A stretch of 64,000 bases of DNA. Source: a virus. The notes beneath the pieces are model-generated. The model worked only from the letters and a program-made list of their open reading frames with translations. It had not been told where the DNA came from and made no database searches. The DNA is taken from the IMG/VR virus record IMGVR_UViG_3300043409_001491, positions 32,001 to 96,000 of that record. The stretch is one strand, 5' to 3'. Every line of letters starts with the position of its first letter. Position 1 is the stretch's first letter. This document shows, piece after piece, positions 1 to 23,800 of this stretch. Both the position numbers and the translations under genes were made by a program.

Positions 1-211
1 TTACGACCTTTCGTCCTTCACGATAGAAAGTGGTGGTGTGCATTTTTCCATTAGGCTCTGATAGATTAACTGTTGCGTATTCATCAGCCATTCCCCAATC
101 AGTAAACGATAGATAAGACTTTACTGCATCAAGTGCGTTGTCATAGCGACCAATCCAATGAGGCGACCTATCTCCGTCATAGGTGTTTGTTACTGAATAT
201 AGATATTCCAT
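1..211 (-). CDS. Early hypothetical protein, partial (runs off window)
   Basis: Hand-translated open frame MEYLYSVTNTYDGDRSPHWIGRYDNALDAV..., AAGGAG RBS, abuts next ORF. Confidence 0.7.
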   Translation of the reverse strand, partial: MEYLYSVTNTYDGDRSPHWIGRYDNALDAVKSYLSFTDWGMADEYATVNLSEPNGKMHTTTFYREGRKVV

Positions 212-393
212 TATGCATTCTCCTTAGTGTATTCATTCATTTCATTCTCAGCATACCATAGGGTGTATTCAATCGCAATCGCTGTACCCTTTTCACAATC
301 GTTGCAAAAATCTGTAATAAACTCATTCTTCATTATGAGTCCTTCATCATAGCAAGTGTAGCAAGTGCCAATCTCATCAAATAAGTTTCCCAT
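211..393 (-). CDS. Small Zn-ribbon-like early protein
   Basis: CYTC..G...CNDC motif; AAGGAG RBS; coupled to neighbours. Confidence 0.7.
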   Translation of the reverse strand: MGNLFDEIGTCYTCYDEGLIMKNEFITDFCNDCEKGTAIAIEYTLWYAENEMNEYTKENA

Positions 394-503
394 TATTTAT
401 ACTCCTTAACGCAATTAGTGCAAATAGAATAGTTAGTGCAATAGCATGATTTCGCATTAGGGCGAAGCATATCTGTTTCATAGTAGTCATCATAGAAATC
501 CAT
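393..503 (-). CDS. 36-aa Cys-rich early peptide
   Basis: Hand-translated MDFYDDYYETDMLRPNAKSCYCTNYSICTNCVKEYK; fills the gap between ORFs exactly. Confidence 0.6.
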   Translation of the reverse strand: MDFYDDYYETDMLRPNAKSCYCTNYSICTNCVKEYK

Positions 504-504
504 A

Positions 505-735
505 TTAGTCCCCTACCTTTACTGCAATCGTAGCATAAAAATCTTCCTTGGGCAAATCAGGGAACCCACGATAGGTAGGGCGTACTGTTACAAGATAGGC
601 TTCAGCATTATGAAAATAAATATTTTCACGCTTTTCTGCATACTGTATAATTCCTTCCAAGCCTCTACGCTTTAGAGAGTGTGAGCGATAATACTTACCT
701 TCAAGTAAATCTGTTATTGTGTATTCTGTAGCCAT
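505..735 (-). CDS. Early hypothetical protein
   Basis: ORF track; AAAGAGG RBS; first gene after the promoter at 778-799. Confidence 0.75.
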   Translation of the reverse strand: MATEYTITDLLEGKYYRSHSLKRRGLEGIIQYAEKRENIYFHNAEAYLVTVRPTYRGFPDLPKEDFYATIAVKVGD

Positions 736-777
736 AGGGGCGACCTCTTTCTTTAGTTAATTTATTATTACTCTGTA

Positions 778-799
778 ATCCTACCATGGCAGGCTGACA
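778..799 (-). promoter_or_regulatory. Class A early promoter TGTCAG-N7-TGn-TAGGAT
   Basis: Same architecture at 1876-1897, 2845-2866 and 3528-3549. Confidence 0.7.
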
Positions 800-848
800 A
801 AAATCTAATTACTAGCCAGTAGTCTTAAATAATGAGACGCTCAAGGAT

Positions 849-864
849 TGTGAGAAAAATCACA
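849..864. promoter_or_regulatory. CRP/GlxR-type site TGTGA-gaaaaa-TCACA
   Basis: Perfect CRP-family consensus; recurs in each early spacer. Confidence 0.7.
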
Positions 865-876
865 TCGTACGTAAAG

Positions 877-897
877 TTATCCACAGCCTGTGGAAAA
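877..897. promoter_or_regulatory. Inverted DnaA-box pair TTATCCACA-gcc-TGTGGAAAA
   Basis: Perfect box plus 1-mismatch inverted box with 3-bp spacer; repeated at 2065-2085. Confidence 0.65.
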
Positions 898-906
898 CCC
901 CCCGAG

Positions 907-950
907 AAAATATTGAGCAGTTTTATATCTTGCTCAGGATTTTATTTTAT
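907..950 (-). terminator. Hairpin terminator at cassette end
   Basis: TGAGCA/TGCTCA stem (914-936) flanked by A and T tracts, directly after the stop of the last cassette gene. Confidence 0.6.
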
Positions 951-1096
951 TTGTTGCGTTCATCTCGCAATTTAAGTTGCAGCCTGCGAATTTCTTTCTG
1001 TTGTTCAATGTTGTGTTTCCAAAATACAAGCATCATTGAAAGAGATCCAGCAAGTGCAATTACAATTGCAATAAGTGTTCCAGTGTCAAGAATCAT
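947..1096 (-). CDS. 49-aa membrane-anchored early protein
   Basis: Hand-translated MILDTGTLIAIVIALAGSLSMMLVFWKHNIEQQKEIRRLQLKLRDERNK; TM helix plus coiled coil; ATGA overlap. Confidence 0.7.
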   Translation of the reverse strand: MILDTGTLIAIVIALAGSLSMMLVFWKHNIEQQKEIRRLQLKLRDERNK

Positions 1097-1275
1097 ACTG
1101 TTTCCATCTCCTTAACGCAAGCATCCCAAAATCTTGTTTCATCAAATCTTGGATTGTCTGCACTAAACCACTCGCTGAATTCAAAAACTAAATCTTGAAA
1201 TACGTGTGAGTCAATAGTATCTGCAAACTGGTTTAGAATTTTTGCAGTTTCTACATAGTCTTTGCGTGTCATCAT
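1093..1275 (-). CDS. Early hypothetical protein (MTRKDY...DNPRFD type)
   Basis: ORF track; motif typical of small phage proteins. Confidence 0.75.
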   Translation of the reverse strand: MMTRKDYVETAKILNQFADTIDSHVFQDLVFEFSEWFSADNPRFDETRFWDACVKEMETV

Positions 1276-1481
1276 TAGTTGGCCACCTTTAGAATTGCAT
1301 AAGAGCCATTTTCATTTATTTCATCAAGGGCTGGCTGAATTCTTGGCGCAAGTAAATCTTTTAGCATTGACTCTAGCATTTGAATTTGCATTGACTCTGA
1401 AAGTCTAAGCAGTTGCATTCCTACTGGGTGAGTTTCGTCAACCTCTGTTACGAAGTGAAGTGAGTGAGGTATTTTTACCAT
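1275..1481 (-). CDS. Early hypothetical protein
   Basis: ORF track; coupled to neighbours. Confidence 0.7.
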   Translation of the reverse strand: MVKIPHSLHFVTEVDETHPVGMQLLRLSESMQIQMLESMLKDLLAPRIQPALDEINENGSYAILKVAN

Positions 1482-1501
1482 GTTTTTTATTTCCTATTCT
1501 T

Positions 1502-1657
1502 TTAGTTGGATTCAGGGGTATTGAATAAATTAAGGTCTTGCTCTAGTGAAAAATCACATTCGCAAGTTTCTACATCAAAATCATTAGCGTTACCAAAAAA
1601 TAGTAACCCTGTTGAATTGCATTCCTCGCAAGGAATTGTTAGGACTGAGTTTATCAT
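1502..1657 (-). CDS. 51-aa Zn-ribbon-like peptide
   Basis: Hand-translated MINSVLTIPCEECNSTGLLFFGNANDFDVETCECD... Confidence 0.65.
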   Translation of the reverse strand: MINSVLTIPCEECNSTGLLFFGNANDFDVETCECDFSLEQDLNLFNTPESN

Positions 1658-1842
1658 TATACTAAGGCCTTCCCTCTAAGTGTTCCACGAATACCAAGCA
1701 AGTCGCATGATACTTTTACAGATACGCCAACAGGTAGCGCATTAGGATAGTTAGAGATAAAATCTGCAACCTGTCCTCTAGTTGATAGGGGAATTGTTTT
1801 TACTGAACCTGAATAGGTTTCTAGTTTTATAGTGTAAGTCAT
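1657..1842 (-). CDS. Early hypothetical protein
   Basis: ORF track; GAAAGGAAG RBS. Confidence 0.75.
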   Translation of the reverse strand: MTYTIKLETYSGSVKTIPLSTRGQVADFISNYPNALPVGVSVKVSCDLLGIRGTLRGKALV

Positions 1843-1875
1843 TTGGTGACTTCCTTTCGTTTTAGTGATAAGACT

Positions 1876-1897
1876 ATCTTACCATTAGGGGCTGACA
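1876..1897 (-). promoter_or_regulatory. Class A early promoter TGTCAG-N7-TGn-TAAGAT
   Basis: Repeated architecture. Confidence 0.7.
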
Positions 1898-1899
1898 TT

Positions 1900-1980
1900 T
1901 TAGGGCATTTATTCGCTAGGCTCATTGTGATACTGGTCACACTTATTTGCTAGGCTCATGCCCTTATTTAATTGTTATAA
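1900..1980 (-). ncRNA. Candidate structured leader RNA with two UGAGCCUAGCRAAUAA modules
   Basis: AGGGCAU/AUGCCCU closing stem, tandem motif flanking a TGTGA-N6-TCACA palindrome (1926-1941); related element at 3961-4050. Confidence 0.45.
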
Positions 1981-1984
1981 GGCA

Positions 1985-2025
1985 AGTATAGCAAAAAAAT
2001 ATCAAGAAAGCAAATCGACACGCCG
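1985..2025 (-). promoter_or_regulatory. Class B early promoter CGGCGTGTCG-N2-TTGCTT-N17-TATACT
   Basis: Same upstream decamer at 3695 and 3912. Confidence 0.7.
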
Positions 2026-2044
2026 TAAATCAGGGGAATAGTAG

Positions 2045-2092
2045 TGTGATCTTAACCACATAAGTTATACACAGGCTGTGGAAAACCCCGAG
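2045..2092. promoter_or_regulatory. CRP-like site (2045-2060), DnaA-box pair (2065-2085) and CCCGAG
   Basis: TGTGAtcttaaCCACA; TTATACACA-ggc-TGTGGAAAA. Confidence 0.6.
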
Positions 2093-2093
2093 C

Positions 2094-2130
2094 AAAAATT
2101 GCAGAGTTTTTATTTCTGCAATCTTTTTTA
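2094..2130 (-). terminator. Hairpin terminator
   Basis: TTGCAGA/TCTGCAA stem with A/T tracts. Confidence 0.6.
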
Positions 2131-2197
2131 TTTATGCTCCGTTATGAAACCAAACTACAAGAGCAGTGCAAGTCATAGCAATAAGAATAACTATCAT

Positions 2198-2287
2198 TTA
2201 TTTATTCTCAATCTCATCTAATAGTTCCCAAAGTATTGGCTCTAATTCTTTAGCAGCCAAATCTAATTTATCTTGTAAGGTTTTCAT
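2198..2287 (-). CDS. 29-aa early peptide
   Basis: MKTLQDKLDLAAKELEPILWELLDEIENK; AAGGGAG RBS; followed by a 21-aa hydrophobic ORF at 2132-2197. Confidence 0.55.
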   Translation of the reverse strand: MKTLQDKLDLAAKELEPILWELLDEIENK

Positions 2288-2452
2288 TTATTTAACTCCC
2301 TTGTATAGAAAATCCCAAGCCTTACGGCAGATTAAAATTGAACGGCAGTTATCACAACAGATAACACCATGGGGGTTAAGGTCTAAGTCATAGACATCAA
2401 CAGAGGCAGAAGACTTACCACATACAGAAGCAAGGTTTAGAAATGTACTCAT
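2288..2452 (-). CDS. 54-aa Cys-rich early protein
   Basis: MSTFLNLASVCGKS...VICCDNC...; ATGA overlap. Confidence 0.65.
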   Translation of the reverse strand: MSTFLNLASVCGKSSASVDVYDLDLNPHGVICCDNCRSILICRKAWDFLYKGVK

Positions 2453-2622
2453 TTAGTTAAATACCAATCTGTCCACATAGGTAGACGCTCAGGGTCATGG
2501 TCGCCATAGTAGCGCTCAATATTTTGTTCACAATCTTGGCAGAAAGTAAATTGCTCATCTCCTACTGAGGAGATAGCGGAAAGCATAGGATTATGCTCTT
2601 TACATATTGTTGAGATAGTCAT
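2449..2622 (-). CDS. 57-aa Zn-binding-like early protein
   Basis: MTISTICKEHNP...FCQDCEQNIERY...; coupled to neighbours. Confidence 0.65.
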   Translation of the reverse strand: MTISTICKEHNPMLSAISSVGDEQFTFCQDCEQNIERYYGDHDPERLPMWTDWYLTK

Positions 2623-2789
2623 TACTTGACCCCCTCAAACAATTCTTTACACTTGTTAGGATTTTCCCACCAAGTGAAACCTGCGTGATACTTAGCAGGG
2701 GCGAGGACAACCTGTCCACAAGGGCAGAGGTTCATTACACCTCTAGGGTAATCGCTAACAGTAGCGAACTTTTCAAACAATGAATTCAT
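2622..2789 (-). CDS. 55-aa early protein
   Basis: MNSLFEKFATVSDYPRGVMNLCPCG...; AAAGAAAGGA RBS. Confidence 0.65.
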   Translation of the reverse strand: MNSLFEKFATVSDYPRGVMNLCPCGQVVLAPAKYHAGFTWWENPNKCKELFEGVK

Positions 2790-2844
2790 TTTGAATTCCT
2801 TTCTTTAGAGGATTTCTTTACCTCTTGTTTTTCTTTATACTGTA

Positions 2845-2930
2845 ATTGTAGCAGGGGGGACTGACAAATTGGGGGGTTACTGGCCAGTATTTTAAAACTA
2901 TTTTTGTGATACTCGTCACATTTACCCGAG
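2845..2930 (-). promoter_or_regulatory. Class A promoter (2845-2866), TACTGGCCAGTA palindrome, CRP site (2905-2920) and CCCGAG
   Basis: TGTCAG-N7-TGc-TACAAT; TGTGAtactcgTCACA. Confidence 0.7.
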
Positions 2931-2931
2931 C

Positions 2932-2968
2932 AAAAAATCGTAGGTTTTATTCTACGATCTTTTTTTTA
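2932..2968 (-). terminator. Hairpin terminator
   Basis: ATCGTAG/CTACGAT stem with A/T tracts. Confidence 0.6.
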
Positions 2969-3079
2969 TTTAGAATAACTTCCAGATTTTATTAGCAAGT
3001 CTAACTTTTTTGCTAGTGGGTCAATGTATTCATCTTCCCAAAAGTTTTCTATTTCTAGTTTTTCTACATAGTCTCTCAT
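2966..3079 (-). CDS. 37-aa acidic early peptide
   Basis: MRDYVEKLEIENFWEDEYIDPLAKKLDLLIKSGSYSK; GAGGAG RBS. Confidence 0.6.
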   Translation of the reverse strand: MRDYVEKLEIENFWEDEYIDPLAKKLDLLIKSGSYSK

Positions 3080-3247
3080 TTAGTTCTCCTCTCTTTCTAG
3101 TAGGAATAAATTGTTTAGTGTTTGATTAGCACGATTAAGAGTGTTGAGCAATTCACGATTAGCGAACGCTTGGCGTTCCTCAGCATACTTAGCCTGTTGG
3201 GCTAGTCGCAATTCCTCTAAGCGAGGGGATAGTTTAGGGTTAGTCAT
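3080..3247 (-). CDS. 55-aa helical early protein
   Basis: MTNPKLSPRLEELRLAQQAKYAEERQAFANRELL... Confidence 0.6.
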   Translation of the reverse strand: MTNPKLSPRLEELRLAQQAKYAEERQAFANRELLNTLNRANQTLNNLFLLEREEN

Positions 3248-3251
3248 TTAC

Positions 3252-3476
3252 TTATTCCCAACTTCTACTAGTAGCGTACACCTTGCGATTGCTAGGTGTG
3301 TAGTTAGGTAACTCAGTTAGAGCAACCTCTAGGATAGTACCTTGTAAGGCTACTATGTCTAAGTATTCGTTAGCGTAGACTTCGCTAGGTACTACTAGAG
3401 TAGTTGTACTAAACTCTCTTGAGAGAGGATAGTTTGGGTTAGAGTTATACTCTACCTTGTATTTTAGTGAAAACAT
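3252..3476 (-). CDS. Early hypothetical protein
   Basis: ORF track; AAAGAAAGGA RBS. Confidence 0.75.
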   Translation of the reverse strand: MFSLKYKVEYNSNPNYPLSREFSTTTLVVPSEVYANEYLDIVALQGTILEVALTELPNYTPSNRKVYATSRSWE

Positions 3477-3527
3477 TTTGTTTTCCTTTCTTTATCAAGA
3501 ACCTTTCTTGATTTTCTTTATACTAGT

Positions 3528-3735
3528 ATTATAACACCTACCACTGACATTTAGGGGTGTACAAAACGGACATATGGTACATATGCCACTGTGACATACA
3601 TCATGTGGATAACTTGAGCGTGTTTTAAGGGTGTGATGTGCGTCATGTGGATAACTACCCGAGCCAAAATGTGAGGTAGATCACATGCAGGATACGGCGT
3701 GTCGCCTTGACTTTTAGGGGTATCTATGTTATACT
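3528..3735. promoter_or_regulatory. Divergent early control region: leftward class A promoter, two CRP-like/DnaA composites, CCCGAG, CRP site, rightward class B promoter
   Basis: TGTCAG-N7-TGt-TATAAT (3528-3549, -); TGTGGATAA at 3604-3612 and 3646-3654; TGTGAggtagaTCACA 3670-3685; CGGCGTGTCG-cc-TTGACT-N17-TATACT 3695-3735. Confidence 0.75.
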
Positions 3736-3780
3736 TCTAGTATTAGATAGTTAAAGTATAACTATAAAGAAAGGTTCAAA

Positions 3781-3891
3781 ATGAACACTATAGAAAAAAA
3801 TGAGGCTCTCGCTCAGACACCTGAGCAGACCCTAGCAGACTATGCTAGATTAGACGCACTTATCGCTAAGGGTACCTACTCAGATAAGTGA
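3781..3891 (+). CDS. 36-aa early peptide
   Basis: MNTIEKNEALAQTPEQTLADYARLDALIAKGTYSDK; AAAGAAAGG RBS. Confidence 0.6.
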   Translation: MNTIEKNEALAQTPEQTLADYARLDALIAKGTYSDK

Positions 3892-3952
3892 CCTATATCA
3901 CACCACGCCAACGGCGTGTCGCCTTGACTTTTCAGGGGATATAGGATACCCT
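3887..3952 (+). promoter_or_regulatory. CRP-like site plus class B promoter
   Basis: AGTGAcctataTCACA 3887-3902; CGGCGTGTCGccTTGACT 3912-3929; TACCCT at 17 bp. Confidence 0.6.
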
Positions 3953-4072
3953 TACAGGTATAACAATTAAATAGTAACACAAATCCTAGTGAGCCCTACA
4001 TAGTAGGCAAATAACTTAGGTCAGCAAAAAGGTTAGCAAATCGCTAACAGTTAAAAACGAAAGGTGTTCACA

Positions 4073-4246
4073 ATGAATACACTAAACAGAATAAAAGCAG
4101 AGCAAGACCTTGCTCGCTCAATCGCTCATGAGAAAGCAATCGCTAAGTCTCCATGGATACGTGAAAGCGTAGAAGCCTATCGCTCAGCAGATGAGGCACA
4201 GATAGCCACAGTAGAGGCTATACGCAAGCAATGGTATGGTTTCTAA
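4073..4246 (+). CDS. Early hypothetical protein
   Basis: ORF track (start moved to the ATG after GAAAGG). Confidence 0.7.
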   Translation: MNTLNRIKAEQDLARSIAHEKAIAKSPWIRESVEAYRSADEAQIATVEAIRKQWYGF

Positions 4247-4247
4247 C

Positions 4248-4331
4248 ATGACTATACTACTCATCATCTCTCTAGTATCTTTTATCTTTATCCCTATTGG
4301 AATCTACCTAACTAACGAAGGACACATCTAA
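4248..4331 (+). CDS. 27-aa membrane peptide
   Basis: MTILLIISLVSFIFIPIGIYLTNEGHI; tightly packed between ORFs. Confidence 0.5.
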   Translation: MTILLIISLVSFIFIPIGIYLTNEGHI

Positions 4332-4333
4332 AA

Positions 4334-4501
4334 ATGACTATCACATACTCAATTTGGCAAGGCTCAAAACTTATCTCTATCGACAACGTTGCACATGAGG
4401 TTAAAGCAATAGACCACCTCATTGCATCACTCAACGCCAGTGAATTAGGCAAGGTAAAAAAGTTTACTGCTAACGTTATGCACATCAAGGCAGGTGAATA
4501 A
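4334..4501 (+). CDS. 55-aa early protein
   Basis: MTITYSIWQGSKLISIDNVAHEVKAIDHLI...; GAAGGA RBS. Confidence 0.65.
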   Translation: MTITYSIWQGSKLISIDNVAHEVKAIDHLIASLNASELGKVKKFTANVMHIKAGE

Positions 4502-4606
4502 ATGTTATCAGCGATGTATGCACACACATGCGAGACCTGTGGAGATACAGGTATTATTATATTTGATGAAAGCAATACACATATAGACCCTTGCAGGTGT
4601 GTATAA
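4502..4606 (+). CDS. 34-aa Zn-ribbon-like peptide
   Basis: MLSAMYAHTCETCGDTGIIIFDESNTHIDPCRCV; same Cys pattern as 1502-1657. Confidence 0.6.
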   Translation: MLSAMYAHTCETCGDTGIIIFDESNTHIDPCRCV

Positions 4607-4777
4607 AAAATATTTGTCAATAGTATAAGATCTTTAGCGGGTACCGTGTGCTCACTGTTTTATCTATATTTATTTTATTTATCTATGTATCATACACGTA
4701 TAGAAAATATTCAGATTTTGGTCAAACCTCAAATACAAAATTTTTCAGATTTTCACGGGATATGATAGAATAATACT

Positions 4778-4915
4778 ATGGCTATATTAAACAACCTAGA
4801 TAACGACAAACCACTATTTGAAACAGAATCATCTTCTCTGGCTATAAAGGTTTTTTCAGAAACCTGTTGCAATGGATGTTCTTGCAAATCTGAATCAGAT
4901 CACAAACCAGTATAA
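4778..4915 (+). CDS. 45-aa Cys-rich peptide
   Basis: MAILNNLDND...ETCCNGCSCKSESDHKPV; TGATAGAAT extended -10 just upstream. Confidence 0.5.
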   Translation: MAILNNLDNDKPLFETESSSLAIKVFSETCCNGCSCKSESDHKPV

Positions 4916-20863: not shown

Positions 20864-23800
20864 ATGGCAACAAGAATGCAACAGCGTAGAGGCACTGCAG
20901 CGCAGTGGACCTCTACAAATAGCGGCGCTGGTCCAATCCTAAATGCTGGAGAAATCGGCTGGGAATCAGACACCAATAAATTTAAAATAGGTGATGGAAC
21001 AAACACTTGGGCTGCCCTTGACTACTTTATAGACGCCGACTCAACTGTAAGTCCATCCTTTGGAACAAGTATTACCTTTGAAGGTAGCACTAACGACGGT
21101 AATGAAACAACGCTAATTGTTGTTGATCCAACAGCCGATAGAACAATCTATCTTCCAAACGCATCAGGTACAGTTATTACAACTGGTAATCTTTCAGATA
21201 TTACAGACATTGGAGTGTTTACTTCAACAATCGTAATGGAAGGCTCTAGCGCAGACGCCTCTGAACTTACGCTATCAGCAGGAAACCCAACAGCAGACCG
21301 CACAATTACATTCCCTGACGTAACAGGAACTGTTGCTTTAGCAGAAACAGTAGCCTCTTCTCTTTCAACGGCTTTAGAATCTTATGTTTTAACATCAAAG
21401 GTTGGTGCGTCAACAGATGGCGTTGCAGGTCTAAATTCAGACTCTAACTTGCTTGTTCCAGGAACAAAGATTATTTTTGAAGGTACTGTAGATGGATTTG
21501 AAACTGAATTTTCAGTAACAAACCCTACAGCAGATGTAACTTTAAGTTTTCCAAATGCTACAGATACAATAGTTGGAAGAATAACAACCGACACACTTAC
21601 AAACAAAACTCTAACATCGCCAAAAATTAATGAAGATGTTATTATGTCGGCAACCGCCACAGAACTTAATATTCTTGATGGAGCAACACTATCAACAACA
21701 GAACTTAACTATGTTGATGGAGTAACTTCTGCAATTCAAACTCAAATAGATTTAAAATCTCCTCTTGCATCACCTACTTTTACAGGAACAGTAAATGCAG
21801 CAGCAATTACTACTTCTGGAGATGTAGTAGTTGGAGACCAAGCATTTGTAGGTACAGGGGCTTCAACATTCTCAGGTGCTGGAGATGGAAATTTAACAAA
21901 TCCAGCAATGGTAGTTAGATTTGCTAATGGAGCAAGTGAAGCCTCATTTGCCCAAATGGCATTTCAAAACAATGACCCAACATCTTCTACTGACATAATT
22001 GCTTATGCAGATAATGGAAATGACACTTCTGGTTGGACCGATATGGGTATGACTGGAAGTACTTTTAGTTCTGCAGACTATACAATTACAGCCGCAAACG
22101 ATGGATACATGTTTGTTCAAGCACCACTTGGAAACTTAAGGTCTATTAATAACAAAGTACTTGCTAGCAACGTAGCAACACTTACAACATCTGCTGCTCA
22201 CGGATATGCTATTGGAGATGAAGTTGTTGTAAGTGAAGTAGATGCTACATTTAACGGTACCTTCATAATTACAGCAGTAACTTCAACTACTTTTAGTTAT
22301 GCAAAATCAGCAGGAAACGTTGCTTCAGCAGCAGTTTCTCCAGTTGGATCAGCAAAGGTTGCAACAGGTAATGGAAACCTTGTTTTAGCAACAGGTGAGA
22401 ATGGTACAAGAAATAAGATTGTATTTGCTGCTGGAGGTCTTTCTACTAGCAACACGCAAATGGAAATTACACCAGATGAAAGTGTGCACATTGAAATAGC
22501 AACACCATCAACATCACCCACAACAGGAGCACTAACAGTAGTTGGTGGAGTTGGTATTACTGGAGATATGAATCTTCAAGGAGACCTAGATGTAAACGGA
22601 ACTGTAGACTTCTCTGGAGTTACAACTCTTCCAATTGGTACAAATGCTAATACATTCTTAGCAACCCTTACTAACCCAGTCGTAGTTGTTGATACAACAG
22701 CAAACGACTTTGCACAAATTGCTTTCCAGAACCGTAGCGCACACGCAGATGCCTCTACAGACATCATTGCTTATTCAAATACTGGAAGTGATACCGCTGG
22801 TTATATTGACATGGGTATTACATCTTCAGCATTTTCTGATGTGGACTTTACAATCACTGGACCTGGTGACGGATATATATTCGTAACTGGTGCAACTGGT
22901 GGATCAGATGGAGGTAACTTAGTCTTAGCAACAGGTGATACAGGTTCAACAAATAAAATCATCTTTGCTGCAGGTGGATTAGCATCTAATAATGAACAGA
23001 TGACAATTACTCCAGATGACAACGTTAAGATTTCTATTGCTACTCCATCAACTTCTGCTACTACTGGTGCTTTACAAGTAGTCGGCGGCGTAGGTATTCA
23101 AGGAGACATGAACGTTGATGGTAATGTTAATATTGAAGGAACAATCACATTTGGTGGAGCAGGAACTACTGTAGAAACCGCAAACCTTAATGTTACAGAT
23201 CCTGCAGTCTTTGTTGGAACTAACAACCAATCAGATATTGTTGACCTTGCTTTTATCGGAGAGTATGCAACAACAATTGGTACAATTACAAAGACTGTTT
23301 CAAATAAGGCTCTTACATCAAATGTTGCAACACTTACAACATCAACAACACATACTTATCTTGCTGGAGACGTTGTAGTTGTTTCTGGTGTAGACGCTAC
23401 ATTTAACGGTACTTATAACATTATTGCAGTACCAACTACAACAACATTTACATATGCTAAGACAGCAACAAATGTATCCTCAGCAGCAGCCTCTGGCTCT
23501 GCAGCGGTATCAGCCAGACGTAAATTTGCTGGTATTGCAAGAGATGCATCAGATGGGGTAATCAAAGCATTCAAGGATGCAACAACTAAGCCAACTAGCA
23601 CAGTTAACTTCTCTGAGGCTGGATTAGCATACTCTGATCTACAGGTTGCTGGAATTACAGCATCATCAATTACTGTTGGAGATGTAACTAATACAGAGTT
23701 TGGATACTTAGATGGAGTAACTTCATCAATCCAGACTCAAATTGGTACAAAGTTAGACTCAACAACTGCTGCTACTACATATGCTCCTATTGCAAGCCCA

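Follow-up and report, generated by a model that had tools for sequence, protein, structure and literature searches.

The window analyzed here, a 64-kb stretch of DNA (64,000 nucleotides), belongs to the 105.9-kb genome (~106 kb) of an uncultured phage. Small genes make up an arm that runs leftward for ~23 kb, and the region studied is its promoter-proximal 3.5 kb. Four spacers (window positions 736-946, 1843-2131, 2790-2965, and 3477-3780) part runs of three to five conserved genes that encode 21 to 76 amino acids. Read in the leftward sense, the order of elements in the spacers is a hairpin with a U-run, the word CTCGGG (CCCGAG on the plus strand), DnaA-type boxes, the palindrome TGTGA-N6-TCACA, and a promoter without a -35 box. 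A preliminary description of this DNA had reported four such spacers between micro-gene cassettes; we recovered all of its elements in place and in that order, and the three complete cassettes hold five, five, and three open reading frames, which encode 21 to 74 amino acids. The features are listed below in window coordinates.

2..735, minus strand: start of the next cassette; genes 505-735, 393-503, 211-393, 2-211
736..946, minus strand: spacer 1, alignable with the orthologous spacer in 6 relatives
Spacer 1 parts: promoter 778-799; CRP-type palindrome 849-864; CCCGAG 901-906; K pseudoknot 909-946
Spacer 1 DnaA-type boxes: 877-885, 889-897
947..1842, minus strand: cassette 1, five genes of 49-68 aa, order fixed in near relatives
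Cassette 1 genes, minus strand: 1657-1842, 1502-1657, 1275-1481, 1093-1275, 947-1096
1843..2131, minus strand: spacer 2
Spacer 2 promoters: main 1876-1897; decayed consensus-type ~1985-2014
Spacer 2 palindromes: 1926-1941, with a 20-nt direct repeat on either side; imperfect 2045-2060
Spacer 2 DnaA-type boxes: 2065-2073, 2077-2085
Spacer 2 word and hairpin: CCCGAG 2087-2092; bidirectional terminator 2098-2122
2132..2789, minus strand: cassette 2, five genes of 21-57 aa, content mosaic among relatives
Cassette 2 genes, minus strand: 2622-2789, 2449-2622, 2288-2452, 2198-2287, 2132-2197
2790..2965, minus strand: spacer 3
Spacer 3 parts: promoter 2845-2866; 5' UTR hairpin; palindrome 2905-2920; CCCGAG 2925-2930; bidirectional terminator 2937-2958
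2966..3476, minus strand: cassette 3, three genes of 37-74 aa; many relatives lack it or have it fused to other genes
Cassette 3 genes, minus strand: 3252-3476, 3080-3247, 2966-3079
3477..3780, unstranded: spacer 4, the divergent control region
Divergent region promoters: leftward 3528-3549; rightward consensus 3707-3735
Divergent region 25-nt repeats, each with half a palindrome and a DnaA-type box: 3590-3614, 3632-3656
Divergent region word and palindrome: CCCGAG 3658-3663; palindrome 3670-3685

Outside the spacers, these motifs are nearly absent from the 106-kb genome. The window holds four promoter-terminator units, and at least three more lie leftward of it. The cassette that begins at window position 735 runs left to a terminator at genome position ~31,445, and the array itself reaches further left than the window does, as far as genome position ~26.8 kb. 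The ends of the genome share a 127-bp overlap that resembles an assembly overlap.

Nearly all of the micro-genes have homologues in relatives, at 45 to 88% identity, and are thus real genes. Scans of the 13 micro-genes against Pfam, PHROGs, and PADLOC returned nothing usable and no known family. The phage encodes a WhiB-like gene in which four Cys and GVWGG are present; whiB serves as an actinophage marker (PMC10914622). Its capsid protein is closest to those of Streptomyces phages, although the matches are distant (43%). Together, the WhiB-like gene and the capsid protein point to a host among the actinobacteria, probably a freshwater species of low GC content. A DNA search of cultured phage records gave no match, nor did a search of the genome for a tyrosine integrase (PF00589). 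On this architecture, the region is likely a series of operons of tiny genes, in which a composite boundary separates one short transcription unit from the next.

Promoters, palindromes, and DnaA-type boxes

The pattern TGTCAG-N10-TAnnAT occurs four times on the minus strand of the window, once per spacer, versus 0.17 expected, and none of 100 shuffles reached four. These leftward promoters have an extended -10 box, preceded at 10 bp by a conserved TGTCAG, and no usable -35 box; the hairpin sits 100 to 250 bp upstream of the -10 box. We rejected TGTCAG as the -35 box of a plus-strand promoter, as no -10 box lies at 16 to 18 bp. No sigma region 4 domain or phage sigma factor was found in the genome.

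The perfect palindrome TGTGA-N6-TCACA, the sequence recognized by actinobacterial CRP/GlxR, is likewise present once per spacer (4 in the 64-kb window versus 0.18 expected; 0 of 100 shuffles reached 4). The whole genome contains five, the fifth in a spacer further leftward, and allowing up to one mismatch yields seven sites, all within window positions 849-4904. Thus, the leftward promoters possess the 16-bp palindrome typical of class I CRP/GlxR-dependent promoters. A search of the phage genome for Crp helix-turn-helix (HTH) and cNMP-binding domains found none, and no Crp-family protein is encoded. Six of the nine DnaA-type 9-mers in the window fall within three spacers, where two or more TTATNCACA-type 9-mers lie close together, as in a DnaA box cluster. 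Three more tandem boxes are located at genome positions 23,693-23,755.

Among 162 distinct promoter contexts of the same type, 85 have a perfect palindrome upstream, and the other half have none. The distance from palindrome to -10 box peaks at 52 bp (21 contexts), 62 bp (16 contexts), and 73 bp (19 contexts), placing the palindrome on one face of the helix. In a minor, out-of-phase class, it lies 57 to 58 bp from the -10 box. For the rightward promoter, the distance between its -10 box and the palindrome at 3670 is 52 bp. If the -10 hexamer spans -12 to -7, the palindromes are centered at about -64.5, -74.5, and -85.5; with the phage start site assumed in this way, they miss the class I positions of E. 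coli (near -61.5, -71.5, and -82.5) by ~3 bp.

Hairpins, a pseudoknot, and a GC-rich word

The hairpins of spacers 1 to 3 fold at -11.7 to -12.7 kcal/mol, with z scores of -2.4 to -4.3. The spacer 2 and spacer 3 hairpins are classed as terminator-like and fold well on both strands, each strand combining a stable stem-loop with a U-run, as expected for bidirectional intrinsic terminators. These two are paralogous and differ by two compensatory base pairs, and the wider terminator family (nine members) shows compensatory stem exchanges, T:A to C:G and C:G to T:A. The hairpin of spacer 1 is unlike these two and forms part of an H-type pseudoknot followed by a short U-run. Both helices of the pseudoknot covary, and hundreds of contigs from phages and bacteria contain it. 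Of the three covarying hairpins reported in the preliminary description, the pair in spacers 2 and 3 therefore stands, while a single covarying family in three copies was rejected, as the pseudoknot covariance model misses the spacer 2 and 3 hairpins. Rfam returned no family for any hairpin (20 kb scanned; 91-nt spacer piece, E up to 10), and a literature search with the pseudoknot sequence matched only unrelated primers.

The word CCCGAG is not enriched in the window (4 copies versus 4.9 expected). All four copies are on the plus strand and in the four spacers, and genome-wide, 7 of 7 plus-strand copies lie in leftward spacers. In relatives, the same position is occupied by a GC-rich word that is particular to each lineage and uniform within a genome. 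This lineage specificity led us to discard CCCGAG as a conserved recombination site or as a restriction-type site. Pairing of CTCGGG with CCUGAG of the pseudoknot appeared in one minimum-energy fold and was rejected, as most CTCGGG copies are without such a partner.

Conservation and mosaicism among relatives

In about 20 distinct metagenomic relatives, palindrome, boxes, and promoter type are all retained. Even where the flanking proteins of a relative share only 54 to 67% identity, its spacers are orthologous and can be aligned. Palindrome half-sites and DnaA-type boxes are invariant across relatives at 52 to 88% protein identity, and the arrangement of the retained boxes shifts from inverted to tandem. 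Together with the helical phasing of the -10 distances, this invariance makes the proposed wiring to host global regulators plausible at the level of sequence.

Gene order is more variable toward the divergent region. Window 2132-3476, which holds the two promoter-proximal cassettes, takes four architectural forms across the relatives, an order swap among them, while cassette 947-1842 and its left neighbor keep their order in 14 near relatives. Gains and losses of single genes within cassettes are frequent. Order breakpoints were found at 34% of spacer junctions versus 19% of plain junctions, a ~1.8-fold difference drawn from non-independent genome pairs. One of 300 shuffles matched this enrichment. 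Many breaks lie inside cassettes; at one junction (window ~2400), half of the breaks are within a cassette. In spacer 3, a homology block begins precisely at the palindrome edge. Between spacers, blocks of 14 to 55 nt are repeated in the same orientation at 70 to 90% identity, suggesting that the boundary may act as a homologous-exchange site. The preliminary description had proposed that cassettes may be shuffled at the spacers, to be checked by whether breakpoints among relatives map to spacers or CCCGAG. The two promoter-proximal cassettes and the excess of breakpoints at spacers speak for this; the order-stable distal cassettes, the many indels inside cassettes, and the unconserved word speak against it.

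Interpretation and comparison with known systems

We favor a reading, which we judge fairly probable from the arrangement and conservation of the motifs, in which the early transcription units are gated by a host regulator of the CRP/GlxR type and the repeated boundaries double as recombination points. A leftward RNA polymerase would reach the intrinsic terminator or, in spacer 1, the pseudoknot and its short U-run. Since an A-run and a U-run flank the hairpin, the terminator could stop transcription in both directions. Transcription would restart 100 to 250 bp further on, at the extended -10 promoter with TGTCAG and without a usable -35 box. There, a dimeric host CRP/GlxR-type regulator would bind the palindrome, whose center precedes the -10 box by 52, 62, or 73 bp, and from the same helix face would assist polymerase as a class I activator does, rather than repress it. 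DnaA-type boxes further upstream would supply a second host input, presumably through DnaA. The micro-genes would be expressed early, and host takeover is a putative role for them. The boundary would also serve as a site of homologous exchange, by which the cassettes nearest the divergent region may be reshuffled.

The palindromes and DnaA-type boxes could instead be operators for a phage regulator, or decoys that titrate host CRP and DnaA during phage DNA replication. The five to seven near-perfect palindromes per genome, clustered with DnaA boxes, fit such a role, as do the three extra tandem boxes and the many small early proteins without assigned function. However, the half-sites are constant across lineages with differing spacer words, a pattern that fits a conserved host factor more readily than a repressor specific to the phage, and a decoy has no need of fixed, phased -10 distances; we therefore regard this explanation as unlikely. 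Equally doubtful is that the spacers are primarily mobile recombination cassettes (PeSL-like or integron-like), with CCCGAG as the crossover site and the regulatory motifs secondary. The four head-cassette architectures (including a swapped order), the breakpoint enrichment, the homology block starting in spacer 3, and the short repeated blocks all agree with mobility. Yet other words replace CCCGAG in relatives with equal mosaicism, no tyrosine integrase was found in the genome, and each cassette has its own promoter; the stability of the distal cassettes in 14 relatives and the placing of half the breaks at one junction (window ~2400) inside a cassette also speak against it. Chance resemblance, or convergence of AT-rich intergenic sequence of low complexity, would account for the CCCGAG count and for the A- and U-runs, but not for palindrome and promoter-motif counts that 0 of 100 shuffles matched. 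These counts and the conservation of the spacers in more than 20 relatives already refute it, and we give it almost no credence.

Host-gated units with exchangeable boundaries remain our preferred reading. A more far-reaching version, which we offer as speculation and do not expect to hold in full, is that the spacer is a portable boundary that builds and rebuilds the early micro-operons of freshwater actinophages, coupling their expression to the cAMP/CRP and DnaA state of the host. The lineage word would then be the site of a phage-specific factor, and the pseudoknot an undescribed, very widespread RNA element that processes or protects phage transcripts. Leads for further work are this word, uniform per genome yet variable between lineages, and the widespread covarying pseudoknot without an Rfam family. 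If the palindromes are real CRP/GlxR sites, they would offer a clear example of a lytic phage whose early micro-operons are each tied to a global metabolic regulator in the host, here abundant and hardly cultivable freshwater actinobacteria.

As in E. coli lac P1-type class I promoters and actinobacterial CRP/GlxR regulons, a perfect palindrome stands upstream of a promoter whose -35 box is weak or missing, and its distances are mostly whole helical turns apart; unlike in those systems, the sites are phage-borne, and their absolute positions are displaced from the E. coli optimum. Stoperators of cluster A mycobacteriophages are 13 to 14 bp, asymmetric, intergenic, oriented with transcription, repeated, and lineage-variable. 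The post-terminator word shares these traits (asymmetric, intergenic, transcription-oriented, repeated in the genome, and different between lineages), but has 6 to 8 bp, and the phage is without an integrase. Integron cassette arrays similarly consist of serial small-gene cassettes parted by hairpin-forming sites. Here, however, neither an IntI-type tyrosine recombinase nor attC is present, the hairpins are 22 to 25 nt versus 57 to 141 nt for attC, and every cassette has a promoter.

The host-takeover module of phage SPO1 is reportedly divided into numerous short operons that each have a promoter and a terminator, and these promoters are said to be strong consensus promoters without activator sites (attributed to Stewart et al. 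1998). The module contains some two dozen small early genes to which no relatives are known (PMC10531801). Our region resembles it in clustering small genes of no known family in short operons with their own promoters and terminators; it differs in that SPO1 has its module within the terminal redundancy, while the promoters described here carry activator-type sites. In T4-type phages, the PeSL (promoter-early stem-loop) is a terminator and early promoter unit repeated between small genes, and recombination between its copies has been implicated in indels and replacements (PMC2839356, PMC4122927). The spacers share with PeSLs a composite, repeated intergenic unit of stem-loop terminator and putative early promoter, set amid small genes without annotated function in plastic regions. 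They differ in build: PeSLs are compact, with the stem-loop in or beside a consensus sigma-70 -35/-10 promoter, whereas our units span 175 to 290 bp, have no -35 box, and separate hairpin from promoter by DnaA-type boxes and a palindrome of the activator type. Each cassette comprises three to five genes, and the phage group is unrelated to the T4-type phages. Thus, the idea of such units as modular exchange points would extend from T4-type myoviruses to unrelated phages, with activator sites added.

Genome setting and layout of the unit boundaries

The IMG/VR virus record is 105,901 bp long, with the window at its positions 32,001-96,000. What the record lists as a "direct terminal repeat" is 127 bp of exact overlap, typical of an assembly k-mer, and the ends of the record need not be the true genome ends. 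Genes run leftward from ~35.5 kb to ~12.5 kb (genome coordinates) and rightward in all remaining parts. The region described here therefore comprises the initial 3.5 kb of the ~23-kb leftward arm, together with the divergent control region at the arm head. We found no DNA-level match to cultured phages. The capsid protein is closest to those of large Streptomyces siphoviruses (43%), and the genome also encodes a GP88-family protein, a DUF932 protein and a WhiB-like protein (genome 10285-10458, left of the window) that scores above the Pfam cut-off and has four Cys and a GVWGG turn. The gene whiB is in use as an actinophage marker (PMC10914622). Because of the WhiB-like gene, a G+C content of 37% and lake-type relatives, we infer that the host is likely a low-GC freshwater actinobacterium. 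Also left of the window, at genome 23693-23755, three tandem perfect DnaA boxes spaced 21-33 bp apart adjoin a consensus promoter, a candidate origin or DnaA-titrating site.

The preliminary description had placed four spacers between micro-gene cassettes and given their elements in a fixed order; all four lie where it put them, and the order was borne out. Along the leftward transcript, the last gene of a cassette is followed by a hairpin with a U-run, CTCGGG (plus-strand CCCGAG), DnaA-type boxes, a CRP-type palindrome and the promoter. After the promoter there is often a 5' UTR hairpin, then a ribosome-binding site and the first gene of the next cassette. An order of this kind is that of a boundary between transcription units. 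Spacer 4, the divergent region, has no terminator, and spacer 2 carries an extra consensus-type promoter, decayed in this genome and intact in relatives. The perfect palindrome of spacer 4 lies 52 bp from the -10 box of a rightward consensus promoter, the same distance as in spacer 2.

The motif array is real and well above chance. Perfect TGTGA-N6-TCACA occurs four times in the 64-kb window, once in each spacer, against 0.18 expected (five copies genome-wide), and the three one-mismatch palindromes are likewise confined to the first 5 kb of the window. The minus-strand promoter motif TGTCAG-N10-TAnnAT also occurs once per spacer, four times in the window against 0.17 expected, with seven copies genome-wide in the leftward arm. 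Most copies have TGn before the -10 hexamer, and nothing similar to a -35 box was found 16-18 bp from it in most of them. Six of the window's nine DnaA-type 9-mers sit in three spacers. CCCGAG shows no excess in number; however, each of its seven plus-strand copies in the genome sits inside a leftward spacer, in a single orientation.

Copies of CCCGAG (window coordinates, plus strand)
901-906, spacer 1
2087-2092, spacer 2
2925-2930, spacer 3
3658-3663, spacer 4
three further copies left of the window

Two other repeats were seen in this region. A 20-nt direct repeat (window 1906-1925 and 1940-1959, 90% identical) stands on both sides of the spacer 2 palindrome and is kept in all relatives. Consensus-type promoters of this genome and of relatives carry the 9-mer GGCGTGTCG 2-9 nt upstream of the -35 box, where another regulator may bind.

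Copies of GGCGTGTCG (window coordinates)
3696-3704, plus strand
3913-3921, plus strand
~2018-2026, minus strand

Cassettes 1, 2 and 3 hold five, five and three ORFs. Almost all have homologues in related contigs at 45-88% identity, even those of 21 and 29 aa, and the micro-ORFs are therefore genes. None of the cassette micro-genes matches a known family; several products contain CxxC pairs and two consist of a single hydrophobic helix.

Putative regulator sites in related genomes

Two IMG/VR scans, one via a flanking 247-aa protein (18 loci, 54-67% identity) and one via the first gene of cassette 3 (27 loci, 52-88% identity), together gave ~20 distinct genomes. Orthologous spacers can be aligned end to end, and the promoter motif, DnaA-type boxes and palindrome are retained in all relatives. 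A perfect palindrome lies within 120 nt in 85 of 162 distinct contexts of this promoter type. Measured from palindrome centre to -10 box, the distances peak at 52 bp (21 contexts), 62 bp (16) and 73 bp (19); a smaller class falls at 57-58 bp (10). The 10-11 bp steps between peaks place the palindromes on one helix face, a phasing like that of class I activation. Relative to the E. coli class I optimum the centres are ~3 bp off, assuming a hexamer at -12 to -7 and start sites that are here only predicted.

The preliminary description had proposed wiring to host global regulators. Consistent with this, no phage-encoded Crp-type HTH, cNMP-binding domain or sigma region 4 was found in the genome, and the palindrome is constant while the adjacent DNA diverges, which points to a conserved, predicted host factor. 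The DnaA-type boxes form inverted pairs in this genome versus tandem pairs in relatives, a change that would fit box-by-box recognition, as by DnaA, better than a single palindromic operator.

Spacer hairpins and the word that follows them

Folding energies of the spacer hairpins are ~-12 kcal/mol (z-scores -2.4 to -4.3). In spacers 2 and 3 the stem-loop stands between an A-run and a U-run; both hairpins score as plus-strand terminators, and the minus-strand fold is even better. They form one family of at least nine distinct members from this genome and its relatives, with stems TTGCAG, TCGCAG and TCGTAG, each paired to an exact complement across an A-rich loop whose last bases are AAAAC. Two base pairs are exchanged through double changes, hence real covariation, as expected of a terminator. 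In some relatives the hairpin position is taken by unrelated terminators, and the loop is therefore not essential. Covariation had been proposed for three hairpins; the spacer 1 hairpin is of a different kind, namely helix 2 of an H-type pseudoknot.

The pseudoknot has four variable pairs closed by C:G, a loop with UGAGYA, then AAAAC, then UGCUYA, and occurs five times in the genome.

Pseudoknot copies
window 909-946, minus strand
genome 27610-27647
genome 28823-28862
genome 29507-29544
genome 30107-30147

At least 119 viral contigs matched in a pattern scan; with a stricter pattern, at least 119 bacterial and archaeal genome contigs, spread over many phyla, did so, against ~9 by chance. Helix 1, left out of the scan pattern, covaries strongly in 125 sequences: two pairs show 3-4 pair types with at most one unpaired case, and the score is 0.35, against 0.12 for shuffles and no more than 0.08 for slid controls. 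Divergent copies recovered with a model built without helix 2 carry double substitutions at three helix 2 pairs, with zero unpaired cases. Rfam has no family for it. Copies lie after stop codons. Among 153 viral copies, 30 have a tRNA gene starting 4-14 nt beyond their end, and others are directly upstream of DUF2800 RNA or hammerhead-like cores. A putative role in RNA processing or end protection is most likely. The element, present in hundreds of phage and bacterial contigs, is a lead worth separate follow-up.

At the position of CCCGAG, eight relatives have TTTCGAC, which is absent from the entire genome studied. Further lineages carry GGGCGCCC, GGACGTCC or CATCGGC, and each of these words recurs at several spacers within one genome; CTCGGG is common to a few lineages. 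The GC-rich word after the terminator does not vary within a genome but does between lineages; with CCCGAG so replaced, it is not a conserved recombination site. The word could be a stoperator-like site for a lineage-specific factor. Other possibilities are a GC clamp helping termination and propagated through gene conversion, and a recombination by-product. It, too, merits separate follow-up.

Gene order and known systems

For gene order, forward ORFs were called in 20 distinct arms and clustered, and promoters were marked. The 14 nearer relatives keep the order in cassette 1, in the cassette to its left and in the genes beyond, with only single-gene gains and losses. The arm head (window 2132-3476) has four forms: the two cassettes of this genome, the same two gene blocks in reverse order with a spacer between, and two single-cassette versions, one with each block. 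One homology block starts precisely at the edge of the spacer 3 palindrome; other breaks are at plain gene borders. In more distant relatives, promoter units are far more numerous (one per 1-3 genes) and gene order is scrambled further. The second gene of cassette 3 (window 3080-3247, minus strand) has a paralogue opening the rightward arm (window 4064-4246, plus strand), and the leftward cassette 3 promoter (window 3528-3549) is homologous to a rightward promoter of relatives. Paralogues across the divergent region, with this promoter homology, suggest an inverted duplication.

Over all ordered genome pairs, which are non-independent, shared-gene adjacency is broken at 34% of promoter-spacer junctions versus 19% of plain ones. 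This difference was reached in 1 of 300 shuffles of the spacer labels, and given the non-independence the excess at spacers is an indication rather than proof. Spacers of this genome share 14-55-nt blocks at 70-90% identity, enough for occasional homologous exchange. The proposed interchangeable modules, shuffled at the spacers, are partly supported: blocks occur swapped or singly in the mosaic arm head, and cassette 1 and its leftward neighbour keep their order in the 14 nearer relatives.

An integron reading failed on each defining feature tested. In the best reading, the region consists of early transcription units that a putative host regulator gates and whose repeated boundaries also served as recombination points. 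The boundary organisation is a variant of an already known kind. Of the systems described, the PeSL cassettes of T4-type phages come nearest: small units of a terminator plus an early promoter, located between ORFans, through which modules are shuffled (PMC2839356, PMC4122927). The idea is shared but the build is not: the present units are several times longer, lack a -35 box, and have DnaA-type boxes and an activator-type site in the interval that separates hairpin from promoter. In gene organisation, the array is nearest to the SPO1 host-takeover module, with its 24 small genes in short operons (PMC10531801).
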